Part shown: piece after piece, positions 19,928-33,603 of the stretch
Layout of the letters: every line of letters starts with the position of its first letter
Numbering within the stretch: position 1 is the stretch's first letter
Assembly: GCF_013122565.1 (NCBI RefSeq)
Contig: NZ_CP053258.1
Reading direction: 5' to 3' (one strand)
From: Escherichia coli
GTDB taxonomy: Bacteria; Pseudomonadota; Gammaproteobacteria; Enterobacterales; Enterobacteriaceae
DNA: 64,000 nucleotides
Position numbers and translations under genes: made by a program
The notes under the pieces: generated by a model
Database searches by the model: none
Seen by the model: the letters and a program-made list of their open reading frames with translations, nothing else
What the model was told of the DNA's origin: nothing

Positions 19928-21607
<1,680 letters not shown>

Positions 21608-21981
21608 TTATCGGGCTTTTCTTTAAGGGTAGTCATTCGCTCCGCCTGGTGGGCGACAAAGCGTGCGGTGGATCACGTTTATTAACCTGTCAAAAAATAT
21701 AACGCACTAATATCCATGGAATTTATAAAAATACAGATTTCGTGTTGTTTTTCATTTTCAGAACATTCAATCCTGCTCTCGCCGCAATCATGATATGCCA
21801 TTCCTGATCTGGGTAATAGGCACAGGCTATCTTATTGATAGTTTATATTCATGTAATTGATTGATTCCTATCAAAAAGCGTATCTCCCTGTTTTTTATGA
21901 TGGCTTTGTCTCGCAGAGACGTTTGCAGCATTCTGGAAAATTTTCTGGGTCACAATAACTCACCACCGTGAGGGAAGAATA

Positions 21982-23379
21982 ATGAAAATGGTCTCACGTA
22001 TTACCGCGATCGGCCTGGCTGGCGTCGCGATTTGCTATTTAGGGTTATCTGGTTATGTGTGGTACCACGATAATAAACGTAGTAAACAGGCCGATGTTCA
22101 GGCATCTGCTGTCAGTGAAAATAATAAGGTTTTAGGCTTTCTCCGCGAAAAAGGATGCGACTATTGTCATACGCCTTCGGCAGAATTACCCGCCTATTAT
22201 TATATTCCTGGCGCGAAACAGTTGATGGATTACGACATAAAGCTTGGATATAAATCTTTTAACCTCGAGGCCGTGCGTGCGGCTCTGCTGGCTGATAAAC
22301 CCGTTTCGCAAAGCGATCTGAATAAGATTGAATGGGTGATGCAGTATGAAACTATGCCGCCAACGCGTTATACCGCGCTACACTGGGCGGGTAAGGTGAG
22401 TGATGAAGAGCGCGCGGAAATACTCGCCTGGATTGCAAAACAGCGCGCGGAATATTACGCCAGCAATGATACTGCTCCGGAGCATCGCAATGAACCGGTG
22501 CAGCCCATCCCGCAAAAACTGCCTACCGATGCGCAAAAAGTGGCGTTGGGCTTTGCGCTGTATCACGATCCCCGTTTATCGGCTGATAGCACCATTTCAT
22601 GCGCTCATTGCCATGCGTTGAATGCGGGGGGTGTCGATGGCAGAAAAACATCGATTGGTGTTGGTGGCGCAGTTGGGCCGATTAACGCGCCGACGGTATT
22701 TAACTCAGTATTTAACGTTGAGCAGTTCTGGGATGGTCGTGCGGCAACATTGCAGGATCAGGCTGGTGGACCGCCGTTGAACCCGATTGAAATGGCGTCG
22801 AAATCCTGGGACGAAATTATTGCTAAGCTGGAAAAAGATCCGCAGCTTAAAGCGCAGTTCCTCGAAGTCTATCCGCAAGGTTTCAGTGGCGAAAATATTA
22901 CTGATGCCATTGCTGAATTTGAGAAAACATTAATTACGCCGGATTCCCCATTTGATAAATGGTTACGTGGAGATGAGAATGCGCTGACGGCGCAACAGAA
23001 AAAAGGCTATCAATTATTTAAAGATAATAAATGTGCAACTTGTCATGGTGGAATTATTCTCGGCGGACGTTCCTTCGAACCGTTGGGGCTGAAAAAAGAC
23101 TTTAACTTTGGGGAAATTACGGCGGCGGATATTGGTCGTATGAATGTGACTAAAGAAGAGCGTGATAAATTGCGTCAGAAAGTACCCGGTTTACGTAACG
23201 TTGCTTTAACGGCACCGTACTTCCATCGCGGTGACGTGCCGACGCTGGACGGGGCGGTGAAACTGATGTTGCGCTATCAGGTAGGCAAAGAGCTGCCGCA
23301 GGAGGATGTGGATGATATCGTAGCTTTCCTGCACAGTCTGAACGGGGTGTACACGCCGTATATGCAGGATAAACAATAA
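21982..23379 (+). CDS. ccp: Di-haem cytochrome c peroxidase Ccp (YhjA)
   Basis: 465-aa ORF with N-terminal anchor and multiple CxxCH haem-binding motifs (CDYCH, CAHCH, CATCH). Confidence 0.9.
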   Translation: MKMVSRITAIGLAGVAICYLGLSGYVWYHDNKRSKQADVQASAVSENNKVLGFLREKGCDYCHTPSAELPAYYYIPGAKQLMDYDIKLGYKSFNLEAVRAALLADKPVSQSDLNKIEWVMQYETMPPTRYTALHWAGKVSDEERAEILAWIAKQRAEYYASNDTAPEHRNEPVQPIPQKLPTDAQKVALGFALYHDPRLSADSTISCAHCHALNAGGVDGRKTSIGVGGAVGPINAPTVFNSVFNVEQFWDGRAATLQDQAGGPPLNPIEMASKSWDEIIAKLEKDPQLKAQFLEVYPQGFSGENITDAIAEFEKTLITPDSPFDKWLRGDENALTAQQKKGYQLFKDNKCATCHGGIILGGRSFEPLGLKKDFNFGEITAADIGRMNVTKEERDKLRQKVPGLRNVALTAPYFHRGDVPTLDGAVKLMLRYQVGKELPQEDVDDIVAFLHSLNGVYTPYMQDKQ

Positions 23380-23387
23380 TTAATTTG

Positions 23388-23421
23388 ATCGCCCGAACAG
23401 GAATGTTTGGGCGATTTTTAT
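23388..23421 (+). terminator. Putative intrinsic terminator of ccp
   Basis: Stem atcgcccgaaca / tgtttgggcgat followed by ttttta. Confidence 0.5.
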
Positions 23422-23490
23422 TACGATAATAAAGTCTGTTTTTAATATTATCATGTTAAATGTTTATATTATAAAAAGTCGTTTTTCTGC

Positions 23491-23510
23491 TTAGGATTTT
23501 GTTATTTAAA
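23491..23510 (+). promoter_or_regulatory. GAD box (GadE/GadX-W binding site) upstream of gadA
   Basis: Exact match to the 20-bp motif ttaggattttgttatttaaa, about 80 nt upstream of the gadA start. Confidence 0.65.
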
Positions 23511-23589
23511 TTAAGCCTGTAATGCCTTGCTTCCATTGCGGATAAATCCTACTTTTTTATTGCCTTCAAATAAATTTAAGGAGTTCGAA

Positions 23590-24990
23590 ATGGACCAGAA
23601 GCTGTTAACGGATTTCCGCTCAGAACTACTCGATTCACGTTTTGGCGCAAAGGCCATTTCTACTATCGCGGAGTCAAAACGATTTCCGCTGCACGAAATG
23701 CGCGATGATGTCGCATTCCAGATTATCAATGATGAATTATATCTTGATGGCAACGCTCGTCAGAACCTGGCCACTTTCTGCCAGACCTGGGACGACGAAA
23801 ACGTCCATAAATTGATGGATTTGTCGATCAATAAAAACTGGATCGACAAAGAAGAATATCCGCAATCTGCAGCCATCGACCTGCGTTGCGTAAACATGGT
23901 TGCCGATCTGTGGCATGCGCCTGCGCCGAAAAATGGTCAGGCCGTTGGCACCAACACCATTGGTTCTTCCGAGGCCTGTATGCTTGGCGGGATGGCGATG
24001 AAATGGCGTTGGCGCAAGCGTATGGAAGCTGCAGGCAAACCAACGGATAAACCAAACCTGGTGTGCGGTCCGGTGCAAATCTGCTGGCATAAATTCGCCC
24101 GCTACTGGGATGTGGAGCTGCGTGAGATCCCTATGCGCCCCGGTCAGTTGTTTATGGACCCGAAACGCATGATTGAAGCCTGCGACGAAAACACCATCGG
24201 CGTGGTGCCGACTTTCGGCGTGACCTACACCGGTAACTATGAGTTCCCGCAACCGCTGCACGATGCGCTGGATAAATTCCAGGCCGACACCGGTATCGAC
24301 ATCGACATGCACATCGACGCCGCCAGCGGTGGCTTTCTGGCACCGTTCGTCGCCCCGGATATCGTCTGGGACTTCCGCCTGCCGCGTGTGAAATCGATCA
24401 GTGCTTCAGGCCACAAATTCGGTCTGGCTCCGCTGGGCTGCGGCTGGGTTATCTGGCGTGACGAAGAAGCGCTGCCGCAGGAACTGGTGTTCAACGTTGA
24501 CTACCTCGGTGGTCAGATTGGTACTTTCGCCATCAACTTCTCCCGCCCGGCGGGTCAGGTAATTGCACAGTACTATGAATTCCTGCGCCTCGGTCGTGAA
24601 GGCTATACCAAAGTACAGAACGCCTCTTACCAGGTTGCCGCTTATCTGGCGGATGAAATCGCCAAACTGGGGCCGTATGAGTTCATCTGTACTGGTCGCC
24701 CGGACGAAGGCATTCCGGCGGTTTGCTTCAAACTGAAAGATGGTGAAGATCCGGGATACACCCTGTACGACCTCTCTGAACGTCTGCGTCTGCGTGGCTG
24801 GCAGGTTCCGGCCTTCACTCTCGGCGGTGAAGCCACCGACATCGTGGTGATGCGCATTATGTGTCGTCGCGGCTTCGAAATGGACTTTGCTGAACTGTTG
24901 CTGGAAGACTACAAAGCCTCCCTGAAATATCTCAGCGATCACCCGAAACTGCAGGGTATTGCCCAGCAGAACAGCTTTAAACACACCTGA
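23590..24990 (+). CDS. gadA: Glutamate decarboxylase alpha
   Basis: 466 aa from [20 protein letters not shown]; PLP-dependent decarboxylase; called gadA rather than gadB because gadX follows it. Confidence 0.9.
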
Positions 24991-25009
24991 TAACATAACG
25001 TTGTAAAAA

Positions 25010-25054
25010 CCGAATGCCCAGCCTTTAAAAAAACAGCTGGGCATTCGGTTGCTT
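25010..25054 (+). terminator. Putative intrinsic terminator of gadA
   Basis: 13-bp stem ccgaatgcccagc / gctgggcattcgg after the gadA stop. Confidence 0.55.
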
Positions 25055-25359
25055 ATTAATCGCAATAATATATTGGCTGTCTATTCATCGTGTTAATAAG
25101 ATATATGCTATATGAATGTTTATTAAATGTAGCGATTATATGTAATGTCACGAAAAGGGATTATTTGCTTACTATTAATTTCCCTACGTTCTTAAACATG
25201 TTTTTTGTATTATAAATCCAGTCATCCTGCCCGTAGAACATCACACATTATCATCCTGTTCTCCCGCTTCGTTTAAATTTTTTATCAATCAATTTGACTT
25301 AAGAGGGCGGCGTGCTACATTAATAAACAGTAATATGTTTATGTAATATTAAGTCAACT

Positions 25360-26184
25360 ATGCAATCACTACATGGGAATTGTCTAATTGCGTACGCTAG
25401 ACATAAATATATTCTCACCATGGTTAATGGTGAATATCGCTATTTTAATGGCGGTGACCTGGTTTTTGCGGATGCAAGCCAAATTCGAGTAGATAAGTGT
25501 GTTGAAAATTTTGTATTAGTATCAAGGGATACACTTTCATTATTTCTCCCGATGCTCAAGGAGGAGGCATTAAATCTTCATGCACATAAAAAAGTTCTTT
25601 CATTACTCATTCATCACTGTAGCAGAGATATTCCTTTTTTTCAGGAAGTTGCGCAACTATCGCAGAATAAGAATCTTCGCTATGCAGAAATGTTACGTAA
25701 AAGAGCATTAATCTTTGCGTTGTTATCTGTTTTTCTTGAGGATGAGCACTTTATACCGCTGCTTCTGAACGTTTTACAACCGAACATGCGAACACGAGTT
25801 TGTACGGTTATCAATAATAATATCGCTCATGAGTGGACACTAGCTCGAATCGCCAGCGAGCTATTGATGAGTCCAAGCCTGTTAAAGAAAAAATTGCGCG
25901 AAGAAGAGACATCATATTCACAGTTGCTTACTGAGTGTAGAATGCAACGTGCTTTGCAACTTATTGTTATACATGGATTTTCAATTAAGCGAGTCGCAGT
26001 GTCCTGTGGATATCACAGCGTGTCGTATTTCATTTACGTCTTTCGAAATTATTATGGGATGACGCCCACAGAGTATCAGGAGCGATCGGCGCAGGGATTG
26101 TCGAACTGTGACTCGGCGGCAAGTATGGTTGCGCAAGGAAATTTTTACGGTATTGACTGTTCTGCGGAAGAAATAAGATTATAG
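25360..26184 (+). CDS. gadX: AraC-family acid-resistance regulator GadX
   Basis: 274-aa ORF with C-terminal AraC-type HTH. Confidence 0.9.
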   Translation: MQSLHGNCLIAYARHKYILTMVNGEYRYFNGGDLVFADASQIRVDKCVENFVLVSRDTLSLFLPMLKEEALNLHAHKKVLSLLIHHCSRDIPFFQEVAQLSQNKNLRYAEMLRKRALIFALLSVFLEDEHFIPLLLNVLQPNMRTRVCTVINNNIAHEWTLARIASELLMSPSLLKKKLREEETSYSQLLTECRMQRALQLIVIHGFSIKRVAVSCGYHSVSYFIYVFRNYYGMTPTEYQERSAQGLSNCDSAASMVAQGNFYGIDCSAEEIRL

Positions 26185-26200
26185 AGTTTTACTCAGGCAT

Positions 26201-26306
26201 AAAAAAAACCCGGCATAGGGGACCGGGAAGAGGATAGTCTGCCGTCTCCAGACTAATAAACCGTTATAACACTCCCTGTTGGCACGGGAAACTTTGTGCT
26301 CTCAGT
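26201..26306 (-). ncRNA. gadY: Small regulatory RNA GadY (antisense to the gadX 3' end)
   Basis: Minus-strand sequence ACTGAGAGCACAAAGTTTCCCGTGCCAACAGGG...CCCCTATGCCGGGTTTTTTTT matches GadY as I recall it, ending in a GC hairpin plus U8; lies in the gadX-gadW intergenic region. Confidence 0.7.
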
Positions 26307-26552
26307 AAGTTAAATATAACTTTTACTGGAAATAAGATCAGCCATTTTTTTATAAACATAAGCTATACGCTGTGTGAAAATATATTCTTATTGCATTTAC
26401 TAATTTTTAATCAACTGTTATGCAAAACTACTTTTTGGATAAATTTTGGTCCTACCAAATATGGCAGTTTTTGCACTAAGAAACAGTCTGGCATCATTTC
26501 ATTAGTATACTGAAATTGAAATAATCGCAGTAATGAAATATAAGGGATAATC

Positions 26553-27281
26553 ATGACTCATGTCTGCTCGGTGATCCTCGTTCGTCGTTCATTCGATATT
26601 TATCATGAACAGCAAAAAATATCGCTGCATAACGAGAGTATCCTGCTGCTGGAGAAAAATTTGGCAGACGATTTTGCGTTTTGTTCACCGGATACGCGAC
26701 GACTGGATATCGATGAGCTGACAGTTTGCCATTACTTACAAAATATTCGTCAGCTACCACGCAATTTAGGGTTACATAGCAAAGACCGTTTGTTAATTAA
26801 CCAGTCACCCCCCATGCCACTGGTGACGGCGATTTTTGATAGCTTCAATGAATCCGGGGTAAATTCACCGATACTGAGCAATATGCTCTACCTTTCCTGT
26901 TTATCGATGTTTTCTCATAAGAAAGAACTTATCCCCTTACTTTTCAATAGCATCAGCACTGTTTCAGGAAAAGTTGAACGCCTTATTAGCTTTGATATCG
27001 CTAAACGTTGGTATCTGCGCGATATCGCGGAAAGAATGTATACCAGCGAGAGTCTCATCAAAAAAAAGTTGCAGGATGAAAACACCTGTTTCAGTAAAAT
27101 ATTACTCGCCTCCAGGATGTCGATGGCCAGACGATTACTCGAGTTACGTCAAATTCCTCTGCATACTATTGCGGAAAAATGTGGCTATAGCAGTACATCG
27201 TACTTTATAAACACATTTCGACAATATTATGGTGTAACGCCACATCAGTTTGCGCAACATTCGCCAGGTACCTTTTCCTGA
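26553..27281 (+). CDS. gadW: AraC-family acid-resistance regulator GadW
   Basis: 242-aa ORF, paralogous to GadX, C-terminal AraC HTH. Confidence 0.9.
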   Translation: MTHVCSVILVRRSFDIYHEQQKISLHNESILLLEKNLADDFAFCSPDTRRLDIDELTVCHYLQNIRQLPRNLGLHSKDRLLINQSPPMPLVTAIFDSFNESGVNSPILSNMLYLSCLSMFSHKKELIPLLFNSISTVSGKVERLISFDIAKRWYLRDIAERMYTSESLIKKKLQDENTCFSKILLASRMSMARRLLELRQIPLHTIAEKCGYSSTSYFINTFRQYYGVTPHQFAQHSPGTFS

Positions 27282-27643
27282 CATATTTCGCATTTGAATA
27301 TTGGTCAGGATCTCACACCTGCTTCATGTGAAACTCTTCCCTGATGATTTCTGCCGGGCTACCGGCTAGTTCTCTTTCGCAGTTTGCCAGGCGGTATAGG
27401 TATTTTCAGGAGGAAAAGACTCGGCATGTTTGGGATTATTAAGCTGACAATTCATACGATTACGGGAATGTGGGTCAGTATTGTGTTGTTCAAATTGATG
27501 ACGAATGGCTGGAGTGGTTTCTACTTTCAGTGCTGTGTACTAAGCCTGGTATTCCTGACGGTTAGCTGGTTGTTGAGTGGTGAATGGTTAGCAGGAAAGA
27601 GTAAGGCTGAACCCTCACGTTCAACCTTACTCTCATTTACACG

Positions 27644-30600
27644 TTACGCTTTTTTAAAGCGGACAAAGAGATGTTCCACTACAACAAAAAAGACCGGAAC
27701 GAAGTAAATTGCCAGCACTGTTGCGGCAAACATCCCGCCCATCACGCCGGTACCTACCGCGTTTTGCGCGCCAGAACCGGCACCATGACTGATAACCAGC
27801 GGCAGCACGCCGAGAATAAAGGCCAGAGAGGTCATCAGGATTGGGCGTAAACGCATCCGTGCCGCTTCGATGATTGCCTCTATCGGCGTTTTCCCTTCTT
27901 TCTGCATCATCTCAACGGCAAATTCGACAATCAGGATGGCGTTCTTGGCGGAAAGCCCGATGGTGGTCAGCAAACCAACCTGGAAGTAGACGTCATTACT
28001 TAAGCCGCGCAGATCGGTGGCCAGTAATGCGCCAACGACGCCTAACGGAACAACCAACATCACCGAGAACGGAATTGACCAGCTCTCATAGAGTGCGGCG
28101 AGGGCGAGGAACACCACGACCAGTGAAATGGCATACAGTGCAGGAGCCTGGTTTGAGGATAACGCTTCCTGATACGACAGCCCGGTCCATGAGTAGCCGA
28201 CGCCTGCCGGAAGTTTAGCGACCAGGTCTGCCATAAATTTCATAGCGTCGCCGGTACTTTTCCCGGCCGCCGCTTCACCTAAAATCTCCATTGACGGGAT
28301 GCCGTTGTAGCGTTCCAGTCGCGGTGAACCATAGGTCCATTCGGTAGACGAGTAGGCAGAAAGCGGTGCCATCGTGCCAGAGGCGTTGCGTACATACCAT
28401 TGGTTGATGTTATCCGGCAACATACGGAATGGCGTGCCTGCCTGGACATACACTTTTTTCACCCGCCCCTGGTTGAGGAAGTCGTTCACGTAGCTGCTGC
28501 CGAAGGCGGTGGAAATTGTCTGGTTGATATCAGACAGCGCCACGCCCATCGCTTCAGCTTTCGCAGCGTTGACGTTGACTTTGAACATCGGCGTATCTTC
28601 CAGGCCGTTCGGGCGTACCCCGGTGACCTGATTCGGTGATTGCGCTGCCAGTGATAACAGCTCGTTTCGCGCCTGGGTTAGTTTTTCGTGCCCCAGGTTA
28701 CCGTTGTCCAGCAGTTCCATATCAAAACCTGACGCGGTACCCAGTTCAGCCACCGCGGGTAAGTTGAATGGGAAGACGACGGCTTTATTGATACTGCTTA
28801 ACGCAATCATTGCCCGCTGAATGATCGCGGTAACCGAGTTTTCCTCACCGACACGTTCAGACCACGGCTTGAGACTGATAAACGCCAGGCCGTTGTTTTG
28901 CCCCTGGCCGCTGAAGCCAAAGCCGCCAACGGTAAATACCGACTGGACATTATCTTTCTCTTTAGTCAGATAATAATCCGTCACCTGTTGCAGCACTTTC
29001 GTGGTGTTAACCATGGTGGCACCGGAAGGTAACTGCGCGGTGGTCATAAATACCCCCTGATCCTCTTCTGGTAAGAAAGAGGTCGGCGTGCGCAGGAACA
29101 GCACCGCCATCCCGGCGCAAATCAGGAGGTAGACCACCATGTAGCGACCGGTACAACGCAACAGCGAGCGGGTGCTATCGGTATAGTGCTGAGTTGATTT
29201 TTCAAACAGCGTGTTGAAGCGTGCGAACAGGGCGTTAGGTTTATGACCGCCTTCCGGCGCGGCTTTCAGAATGGTGGCGCACAGGGCAGGGGTCAGGCTC
29301 ATTGCCACAAATACTGAAAGCAGCATGGAGGAGATCAGCGTGATGGAGAACTGGCGGTAGATCTCCCCGGTTGCACCGCTCATAAAGGCCATCGGCATAA
29401 ACACTGCGGAAAGAACAACGGCAATCCCGACCAGCGCACGTTGGATCTGCCCCATCGATTTATGCGTCGCTTCCTTCGGCGGTAGCTTATCTTCCGCAAT
29501 GACACGCTCGACGTTCTCCACCACCACGATGGCGTCATCCACCAGTAACCCTATCGCCAGCACCATCCCGAACATAGTCAACGTGTTGATGGTGAAACCG
29601 ACCGCCGACAAGATCGCAAACGTCCCGAGAATAACCACCGGTACGGCAATCGTCGGGATGATTGTGGCACGGAAATTCTGCAAAAACAGATACATGACCA
29701 GGAAGACGAGGATGATAGCCTCAACCAGTGTTTTGAAAACTTCCTGAATAGAAATTTCGATAAACGGCGTGGTGTCGTAAGGATAAACCGTCTTCAGACT
29801 TGCCGGGAAATAGGCTGATAAGCGGTTCAGTTCCTCTTTGACTGCCCGCGAGGTATCCAGGGCGTTTGCTCCGGCAGCCAGTTTGATGGCGATCCCGGCA
29901 GCAGGTTTGCCGTTATAGCGCGCCACGGTGGAATAATCTTCCGCCCCAAGTTCGACGCGGGCGACATCACGCAGCAGCACTTGCGAACCATCTTGCTGAA
30001 CTTTCAACAGGATTTTGCCAAATTCTTCCGGCGTTTGCAGACGCGTCTGCACAATGATCGAGGCGTTTAGTTGCTGGTCTGCTGCCTGTGGCATGCCACC
30101 CAGTTGACCACCAGAAATCTGGTTGTTCTGCACCTTAATCTGGGAAATAACATCGGAAGGTACCAGGTTATATTTATTGAGTTTTTGCGGATCCAGCCAG
30201 ATCCGCATGGCGTACTCGGAACCAAAGAGCTGTACGCTACCAACGCCCGCGGTACGGCTTAGTGGGTCTTTGATATTAGACGCTACATAGTCCGCGATAT
30301 CGTACTGGTTGAGGCTGCCGTTATCAGAAATAAACGCCGCTACCATTAGGATATTACTGCTCGATTTATCGACGCTAATCCCCTGCTGCTGCACTGCTTC
30401 AGGTAATGAAGGCATAGCGAGTTGCAGTTTATTTTGCACCTGAACCTGTGCGATATCAGGAGATGTCCCAGTCTCGAAGGTCAGAGTGATAGAGGCATTA
30501 CCCGCCGCATCACTGGTTGAAGACATGTACATCAGGCCATCAAGCCCATTCATATTTTGCTCAATCACCTGAGTGACCGAGTCTTCTACCGTTTGCGCAT

Positions 30601-30757
30601 CGGCACCCGGATAGGTAGCGCTGACGGTAATGGTCGGTGGCGCAATCTGCGGATACTGCGCAACCGGTAAGTTCATGATCGCCAGACCACCTGCAAGCAT
30701 CATAATAATGGCAAGTACCCAGGCAAAAACCGGGCGATCAATAAAATAGTTAGCCAT
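27644..30757 (-). CDS. mdtF: RND multidrug efflux pump permease MdtF
   Basis: 1037-aa AcrB-like RND transporter. Confidence 0.95.
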
Positions 30758-30781
30758 GAAAGTCCCCTTAAGCCTGCAACG

Positions 30782-31939
30782 TTATTGTTTCGATTCGGTG
30801 CTGGCGTTTTCCTGGCCGGAGGAAATTGCTCGTGCTTTGATACCCGGACGAATGCGTTGCAAACCGGAAACGATCACCCGATCGCCAGCCTGCAAGCCAG
30901 AGGTGACGACCCACTGGTCGCCGATGGCTTTGCTGGCTTCAATTTCGCGTAGCTGCACGACATCGTCTTTATCCAGAATGAGCGCCGTTGCTTTACCCTG
31001 GGCGTTGTGGGTGACGCCTTCCTGCGGCACCAGTAATACATTCTGGCGGCTACCTTCATCCACTAATGCCGTGACATACATGCCAGGCAGCAAGTCACCA
31101 TTTGGGTTGGGGAAAATCGCCCGTAACGTCACGGAGCCCGTGGTTTCATCCACCGTCGGGTCGGAGAATTTCAACGTGCCGGTCTGGCTGTAACGTTTAC
31201 CATTTTCCAGATTGAGCTGTACTGGCGTACTGCCCTGAATCTGTTTGATTTGCCCATTGGCGACCTCTTCTTTCATACGCAAGAAATCCTGCACCGACTG
31301 CGTGAGATCGACATAAATCGGGTCCAGACGTTGTATGGTAACCAGCGAATCTGCCTGATTAGCGGTAACGAGTGCGCCAACGGTCACCGACGATTTCCCG
31401 CTGACGCCCGTAATCGGCGAGGTGACATTCGCGTATTGCAGATTGATCGTCGCCTGTTCAACAGCCGCTTTGGCGACGGTGACATTGGCTTCTGCTTCAT
31501 TCAGCTGGGTGCGCGCGGTGTCGTAATCCTGACGGCTAACGTAGTTGGTCTTCAGCAACGATGCCTGGCGGTTAAAGGTGATGCGGGCATTGCTGGCGGT
31601 AGAGAGCGCTTTCGCCAGCGAGCCTTTGGCGGAGTTTAGCTCGGCCTGTAAAGGTGCAGGGTCAATCTGGTACAGCGAATCGCCCTGGTTCACTTTATCG
31701 CCTTCGATAAAGTTGCGTTTAATGATAATACCACCCACCTGGGGACGTATCTCGGCAACTTCATAAGGAACGGTTCTACCGGGCAATTCGCTCAACACAT
31801 TGACCGAACCGGGGGAGAGTGTGACGACACCGACCTCAGGCGTCATGGCGGCGGCGTTTTCCGCCGATTTGTCATCGCAGGCGGTGAGCATCGCGCCGCA
31901 GAATAACAACGGTATTAACAGCTTTCTTCTTCTGTTCAT
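30782..31939 (-). CDS. mdtE: RND efflux membrane fusion (periplasmic adaptor) protein MdtE
   Basis: 385-aa ORF with lipoprotein signal (LLFCGAMLTAC); AcrA-like; 24 nt upstream of mdtF. Confidence 0.95.
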   Translation of the reverse strand: MNRRRKLLIPLLFCGAMLTACDDKSAENAAAMTPEVGVVTLSPGSVNVLSELPGRTVPYEVAEIRPQVGGIIIKRNFIEGDKVNQGDSLYQIDPAPLQAELNSAKGSLAKALSTASNARITFNRQASLLKTNYVSRQDYDTARTQLNEAEANVTVAKAAVEQATINLQYANVTSPITGVSGKSSVTVGALVTANQADSLVTIQRLDPIYVDLTQSVQDFLRMKEEVANGQIKQIQGSTPVQLNLENGKRYSQTGTLKFSDPTVDETTGSVTLRAIFPNPNGDLLPGMYVTALVDEGSRQNVLLVPQEGVTHNAQGKATALILDKDDVVQLREIEASKAIGDQWVVTSGLQAGDRVIVSGLQRIRPGIKARAISSGQENASTESKQ

Positions 31940-32277
31940 TTTAGTCCCTGAAAATTCTTGAGAAATAACGGTTCTTTAAATTGCGCGCGAGGAGAGATAT
32001 GAGGGATTTACAGACCAGCGGCATAGTGGGGTTGTCAGCCAGTAAGGTGGGATACAGGCACAGTGATCGACATGGTGAGGTCAACGACAAAAAAAATGTT
32101 GCCGTTCTGCCAACAGTTCCTGCCAGCATTCGGGCAACGAAGGGTTCTACTGGTGGATACACATACCAGGGGAATAAAGTCGTTTTAGCCTCTCCTTTAG
32201 TAATCACCGGGGGTAATGAAATCAGCATCTGCATCCCTCGTCATGCCAGCCATCAATTTCAGTTGCTTATGTCCTGA

Positions 32278-32805
32278 CTAAAAATAAGATGTGATACCCA
32301 GGGTGACGATGTCGCTCATACGTCTTAGTTTCAGCTTGTACATAATGTTGAATTTCTGAATCTTTAATGTTTGTTGCGAAATATTGAGCGTCGACGTGAT
32401 ATTGCTTTCATTTTTATTTTTCAGAATCAGTTGCATAATTTTGAACTGATTATGTGAAAAACATAATTCTGAATTCTTATGGGGCAAGTGTTTACCATAA
32501 GTAATCTCAAGAAGATTTTTGATACTTTCTTTGCGGCTGACAAAATAAATAGGCGCTTTAGCTTTTAGTTTACTGATGTGATAAGGTGCCAAAACAATAA
32601 TTCTCTCGGCATCTAATTTCTCCAGAAATTTAATCGCTTCTTCATCAAGGATATGATTGTGATAGGTATCAATGATAACCTTGAAGGGTTTATTGCCTAC
32701 TTTTTTGATCTCTGACAGGGAATTGATTTTTATCATTTCGTGATTATCTTTCAACTGCCAAAAGCCCTGTAAAAGAAAAGAATCTTTCGTCATGAGAAAA
32801 ATCAT
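32278..32805 (-). CDS. gadE: LuxR-family acid-resistance master regulator GadE
   Basis: 175 aa from MIFLMTKDSFLLQGFWQL; track ORF has a 26-codon N-terminal extension. Confidence 0.9.
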   Translation of the reverse strand: MIFLMTKDSFLLQGFWQLKDNHEMIKINSLSEIKKVGNKPFKVIIDTYHNHILDEEAIKFLEKLDAERIIVLAPYHISKLKAKAPIYFVSRKESIKNLLEITYGKHLPHKNSELCFSHNQFKIMQLILKNKNESNITSTLNISQQTLKIQKFNIMYKLKLRRMSDIVTLGITSYF

Positions 32806-33603
32806 AACTTGCTCCTTAGCCGTTATCGTTTCGAACATGTCATCCTTTTCATTATTTACATCCTTGTCCGAATCGTTGTTCAATATAGTAAACGCCTATA
32901 AGAACTTTGCCCTTCGTGAACTAATACGTCTATTAACACTAATCAATACTTCAGATTTATCCATCACGCACTCCATATATTGATCCTAAGTAAAATTCCT
33001 GGTTGTTATCAATTTGTAAACAGTGAACAAAAAGTTAACGTTTGCGGATTACTGCCCAAGAATAAGTTATCAATAACCAGTTTGTGATCTCTGAAGAATA
33101 TTACTAAAGTTAAAATGTAATCCGATTTAAATATCGAGTCTCCTTGTTTCGACTTAAGCTGGCAATTGGATTGCCAGCTTTCTTTTAACGCATTGAAATT
33201 ACCTGAGTAAATAACGCATTCATGTCTTCAGGTTTTTATATAGCGTCTGGAGACACGGATATTTATGCAATGTAATCAACGCCAGTTGCAATAAAATGAA
33301 CCCGGATTACTTATTTAACCGCCCATATCATCAACGCTTACGGAACTCTTTGTTCACTTTCCCACAGCACTTTTAAAACATTAAACCTGACTACGGAAAA
33401 TATCAGCCATGATAATGTTTGAAATGGCTAATTTGCCATGGAATGAAAAAATTTAGATTAAATTCAGTAGGTTGAAATAATCACCAGCAGGTGATTATTT
33501 CAATGATAGTGCGAAAATGATCTGCAACGCTGTGAAGCGGAGAGAGTATTAATTAGATCATAGTCACATCAAGTGACTATGATCCAGATGACAACCGGGA
33601 TAA

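Follow-up and report, generated by a model that had tools for sequence, protein, structure and literature searches.

A gadY gene identical to that of K-12 in the gadX-gadW intergenic region of an Escherichia coli acid fitness island

Between gadX and gadW, two genes for AraC-family regulators of acid resistance, the Escherichia coli DNA analysed here (a stretch of 64,000 nucleotides, contig NZ_CP053258.1, referred to as the window) has a gap with no assigned gene. Is this gap empty, is it a mere promoter region, or does it hold a gene on the opposite strand? The original prediction had given the whole interval 26185..26552 to the small RNA GadY. This interval is exactly the gap between the gadX and gadW ORFs, 368 nt long. 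It does contain gadY, but the gene takes up only 106 nt (29%) of it, and the range had therefore been drawn too wide.

We have very little doubt that the minus strand at 26201..26306 is gadY, that it is transcribed from its own promoter as an antisense RNA to the gadX-gadW mRNA, and that the pairing of both RNAs leads to cleavage, to more stable products and to an increase in GadX. The identity of the gene, the match to its structure model, the terminator, the promoter elements, the synteny and the strong conservation were all observed in the present analysis, and we found nothing that contradicts the identification. The gene is an exact copy in its canonical place; it is already known and nothing about it is novel. 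The function of GadY as a regulator in the circuit of glutamate-dependent acid resistance has been characterised, and the value of recognising its gene here lies in the completeness of the annotation, as it prevents the gap from being taken as empty or as promoter region only.

Identity of the gene between gadX and gadW

The scan with Rfam 15, which covered 20000..33000 and then the entire window, gave a match to the GadY family (RF00122) at 26196..26309 on the minus strand with a score of 147.9 bits (E 5e-32), the gathering score being 45. The match spanned model positions 1-114 of 114 and contained no non-standard pairs. According to the annotation record, gadY of K-12 MG1655 (b4452) is located at NC_000913.3 3664864..3664969 and is 106 nt long. 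When aligned to the window it was identical in 106/106 positions, on the minus strand and at exactly the sub-range that had been proposed for the comparison with Rfam and with the K-12 coordinates. The predicted match of the minus strand to GadY was thus confirmed by the family model as well as by the K-12 gene. IS183 is an earlier name of b4452.

The neighbouring genes agreed with this position. The gadX ORF scored 586.6 bits against the GadX equivalog NF007432 of NCBIfam (cut-off 500). For the gadW ORF no NCBIfam equivalog reached its cut-off, and its name therefore rests on synteny and near-identity: it is colinear with gadW of K-12 and with RefSeq GadW of strain ET201, the closest complete genome. 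The gene order ccp-gadA-gadX-(gadY)-gadW-mdtF-mdtE is that of the K-12 acid fitness island, with mdtF on the other strand. GadY is opposite in strand to gadX and gadW. Its 3' end faces the gadX stop codon, which ends at 26184, at a distance of 16 nt, and 246 nt separate its 5' end from the start of gadW. The coordinates are collected in the table.

Table. Coordinates of gadY, its regulatory elements and the adjoining genes in the window
Feature	Coordinates	Strand	Basis or remark
gadX, AraC-family acid-resistance activator, 274 aa	25360..26184	+	NCBIfam NF007432 GadX equivalog; RefSeq name in closest genome
gadY, small regulatory RNA GadY, full-length form 105/106 nt	26201..26306	-	K-12 identity and RF00122
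gadY intrinsic terminator, stem-loop CCCGGTCCCCTATGCCGGG (26227..26209) followed by U8 (26208..26201)	26201..26227	-	terminator scan
Target of GadY, gadX 3'UTR / gadX-gadW intercistronic part of the gadXW mRNA	26201..26306	+	opposite strand
gadY promoter	26313..26345	-	positions computed from the K-12 5' end at 26306
-10 element TATATT	26313..26318	-	positions -12..-7
-35-like element CTGATC	26336..26341	-	weak, 3/6 matches
AppY motif ATGGCTGA	26338..26345	-	positions -39..-32; fits ATGSCWGM
gadY/gadW divergent promoter region (rest of 26185..26552)	26307..26552		SdiA-type motifs by regex
Putative SdiA-type motif AAAAT-N18-TAAAA	26321..26348	-	regex
Putative SdiA-type motif AAAAC-N18-CAAAA	26444..26471	-	regex
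gadW, AraC-family acid-resistance regulator, 242 aa	26553..27281	+	synteny and near-identity

The terminal hairpin and U-tract that had been noticed in the sequence were recovered by the terminator scan as a stem of six pairs, five of them G-C, with a loop of 7 nt and a T8 tail on the minus strand. This was the sole site called in 26100..26650, where shuffled sequences gave 0.3. This hairpin is the third of three in the Rfam consensus, and the minimum-energy fold of GadY contained all of them. In folding energy GadY was indistinguishable from shuffled sequence (z = -0.73). Moreover, the RNA is invariant in the lineages retrieved, except for an unpaired A in strain E69, so that covariation has no variation to work on. 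The structure of GadY therefore rests on the Rfam model.

As the gadX stop codon is followed by the hairpin at a distance of 24 nt, the hairpin and T-run could also be regarded as merely the terminator of gadX, or as a bidirectional terminator, with no separate RNA gene present. On the plus strand, however, A8 precedes the hairpin and AAGAGG comes after it, and a U-run exists on the minus-strand transcript only. The hairpin is for this reason no intrinsic terminator for gadX, in agreement with the gadX-gadW read-through transcripts that have been documented. In addition, the GadY model and the match to K-12 gadY reach approx. 80 nt past the hairpin, and the whole 106 nt are invariant (bar the one insertion in E69), whereas the adjacent spacer of 16 nt varies in the five-lineage alignment described below. 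With no U-run on the plus strand, the gadX terminator as the only content of the gap is effectively refuted, and we give it next to no probability.

A small protein encoded in the intergenic region, instead of or besides an RNA regulator, was considered since ORFs of 31, 40 and 47 aa, called mechanically, overlap 26185..26552. The GadY transcript, however, is interrupted by stops in each of its three frames, and no ORF within 26201..26306 reached 20 aa. The start of the 31-aa ORF, at 26359, is upstream of where GadY begins. No protein is annotated there in K-12, and where PMC3050690 deals with gadY, the gene is described as having no protein product. We rejected a small protein, given that no ORF of at least 20 aa lies inside the transcript, and hold it to be extremely improbable.

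Promoter and divergent regulatory region

The gadY promoter was placed via the K-12 5' end together with the published AppY motif. It was missed by a generic scan for sigma-70 promoters, because the -35-like element matches in just three of six positions. From -1 to -60 the promoter is identical to that of K-12. The ATGSCWGM motif is described as overlapping the gadY -35 element and contributing to the activation by AppY (PMC10057817), and the expression of gadY is described as RpoS-dependent (PMC4152358). Control by RpoS, AppY and SdiA is taken from the literature. Both of the putative SdiA-type motifs have been described in K-12, where according to the authors their binding awaits validation (PMC7286202).

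Compared with K-12 the intergenic region contained 12 differences, all of them in the promoter region or 3' of gadY, and none in gadY itself. One difference was found at 26197, 3' of the terminator; the others were concentrated in the gadY/gadW promoter region at 26376..26412. Within these 37 nt of an otherwise well-conserved divergent promoter region we counted 8 substitutions relative to K-12. Judged by its position, the cluster might touch binding sites of regulators (GadX/GadW, SdiA). Binding sites of 42 bp for GadX/GadW were reportedly described by Tramonti in 2008.

Conservation of gadY and its action on the gadX-gadW mRNA

The 106 nt of gadY were found with at least 99% identity in 5,412 of the 5,426 complete E. 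coli genomes. A stretch of 501 nt around the gene reached at least 99% in only four genomes, as the differences are located in the promoter region and beside the terminator. In all of the 12 RefSeq E. coli records that were sampled, the annotation was blank at the position of the gadY match. ORF-based readings of the island consequently miss GadY, and the original prediction was right in calling it easy to overlook.

Over an aligned 17.3 kb including the island the window is 98.47% identical to K-12, and at this overall identity the probability of 106/106 identical positions is approx. 0.19. The match to K-12 alone is therefore unremarkable, and the case for constraint on gadY rests on more divergent lineages. 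An exact 32-mer of gadY, searched in one genome per bacterial species, was present in three genomes, all of them Escherichia. This taxonomic range is a lower bound, since the probe demands an exact match and misses diverged copies (e.g. in E. albertii or E. fergusonii, if present there). In each of the three genomes the Rfam GadY model matched over its full length, with scores of 142.7 to 150 bits. In an alignment of five Escherichia lineages 1 of the 107 gadY columns varied, due to the extra unpaired A in strain E69, as compared with 46 of the 139 columns (33%) in the flanks (Fisher p 2.5e-12). The 32-mer probe forces 32 of the gadY columns to be identical; with these dropped the comparison was 1/75 against 46/139 (Fisher p 2.5e-9). 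Both p values overstate the independence of the data, as the five sequences share ancestry.

GadY is perfectly complementary to its target because it is made from the other strand. It is described as three species of 105, 90 and 59 nt that have a common 3' end, and its overlap with the gadX mRNA is given as at least 30 nt (PMC3050690). GadY is further reported to bind Hfq (PMC3050690, PMC11300174). According to the account of 2004, as quoted in PMC10057817 and PMC3050690, the message is stabilised when GadY pairs with the 3'UTR of gadX, and the original prediction had stated the same for the gadXW message. In the later view, pairing with the gadX-gadW dicistronic mRNA results in cleavage between the two genes, and the RNAs stabilised after cleavage are both monocistronic products, gadX and gadW (PMC4152358, PMC3919570, the latter written by a co-author of the later GadY cleavage work). 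The predicted pairing and stabilisation are thus those of the 2004 account, while by the later work it is not the intact gadXW message that is stabilised. RNase III participates in the cleavage, and as cleavage persists in an rnc mutant a further double-strand-specific activity has been suggested (PMC4152358, PMC3919570). On the question of RNase E versus RNase III the relevant statements in PMC10783499 are inconsistent with each other.

Every element needed for this mechanism is present in the window and is the same as in K-12. The expression of GadY, its binding to Hfq and the cleavage are taken from the literature. In the host strain transcription of GadY would start at its own promoter, run in the direction of gadX and stop at the intrinsic terminator, 16 nt before the gadX stop codon is reached. 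Pairing of GadY with the gadX-gadW dicistronic mRNA would form a double-stranded region, which would be cut between gadX and gadW by RNase III and at least one other activity. The two monocistronic RNAs released in this way, gadX and gadW, would be more stable, so that more GadX would accumulate and gadA, gadBC and gadE, genes of glutamate-dependent acid resistance, would be induced.

The closest comparison is GadY of K-12 (RF00122, b4452), which has the same 106 nt, three hairpins, terminator, -10 element, AppY motif and opposite-strand position between gadX and gadW. Inside the RNA there is no difference, and the 12 intergenic positions at which the host lineage departs from K-12 are all elsewhere. 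In lambda OOP/cII-O, Sok/hok, IstR/tisB and OrzO/zorO, a perfectly complementary antisense RNA likewise creates an RNase III substrate in its target, and these systems, as is the case for GadY, are described as retaining some cleavage in the absence of RNase III (PMC3919570). The outcome is different: cleavage represses the targets of OOP, Sok, IstR and OrzO, whereas with GadY it leads to stabler products and a positive effect (PMC4152358). SraG, located between rpsO and pnp, is unrelated to GadY in sequence and targets and can be compared by its layout alone.

Pairing in cis cannot keep the sequence of gadY frozen, since any mutation alters both strands and complementarity survives. The 1/107 varying columns, against 33% in the flanks, are accordingly more than cis pairing alone can explain. 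They would also be accounted for if GadY acted mainly in trans, by Hfq-dependent pairing with other mRNAs or by titration of CsrA, the cis effect on gadXW being secondary. Effects of this kind have been described, namely pairing with the sdiA mRNA (PMC11300174) and, on overproduction of GadY, CsrA titration and pgaABCD-dependent biofilm formation (PMC10057817, citing Parker 2017). The trans effects were, however, mostly seen on overproduction, while the best-documented role of GadY, with loss-of-function support, is the one in cis on gadX-gadW. The invariance could equally stem from the hairpins of GadY itself, from Hfq binding, from nuclease recognition or from structure in the plus-strand mRNA. 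We therefore regard a mainly trans-acting GadY as unlikely, and action in trans as a complement to the cis explanation more than its competitor.

For the gene in the window we retain the action in cis on the gadX-gadW mRNA. The excess of constraint may tentatively be ascribed to uncharacterised functions, either trans targets or a structured plus-strand element between gadX and gadW, and we put the chance of this somewhat higher than that of a mainly trans-acting GadY, though still low. That gadY is conserved beyond what antisense pairing requires is a modest point and no discovery; it is the sole new biological question that this locus raised.

Other features of the window and its lineage

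Two further small RNAs were found near gadE. GadF, from the gadE 3' end, is located between gadE and mdtE at 32089..32179 on the minus strand and is identical to K-12 b4718 in 91/91 positions; its 3' 72 nt correspond to Rfam ES205 (RF02754; 105 bits vs 86). The other is ArrS, an antisense RNA to the 5' leader of gadE. It is located at 33117..33186 on the plus strand and is identical to K-12 b4704 in 70/70 positions; at this site no Rfam match reached the gathering threshold.

K-12 carries a tandem pair of Agr antisense RNAs, agrA and agrB, whereas the window has a single copy at this place, at 41592..41673 on the minus strand (Rfam AgrB RF02891, 108 bits). This copy resembles K-12 agrA (97.6%) more than agrB (95.1%). 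Between it and the dinQ toxin gene (43536..43613) lies approx. 1.7 kb (~41789..43535) that is missing from K-12. Elsewhere in E. coli this insert is annotated as an IS200/IS605 element with tnpA and the InsQ/TnpB RNA-guided endonuclease, and in the window it contains an ORF of 402 aa at 41832..43040 on the minus strand. With a query of 2.1 kb, a place with coverage of at least 80% was obtained in 4,306 of the 5,426 complete genomes. In K-12 yhiS is interrupted by an IS5. The window lacks this element (~37938..37940), and yhiS is thus probably intact in the host strain.

Among the complete genomes of E. coli the host lineage is an uncommon one: across the 12 kb at 21000..33000, only seven records reached 99% identity to the window, the best of them 99.3%. 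The sources of the seven close records were beef, human, bear, frog, poultry and pigeon isolates.
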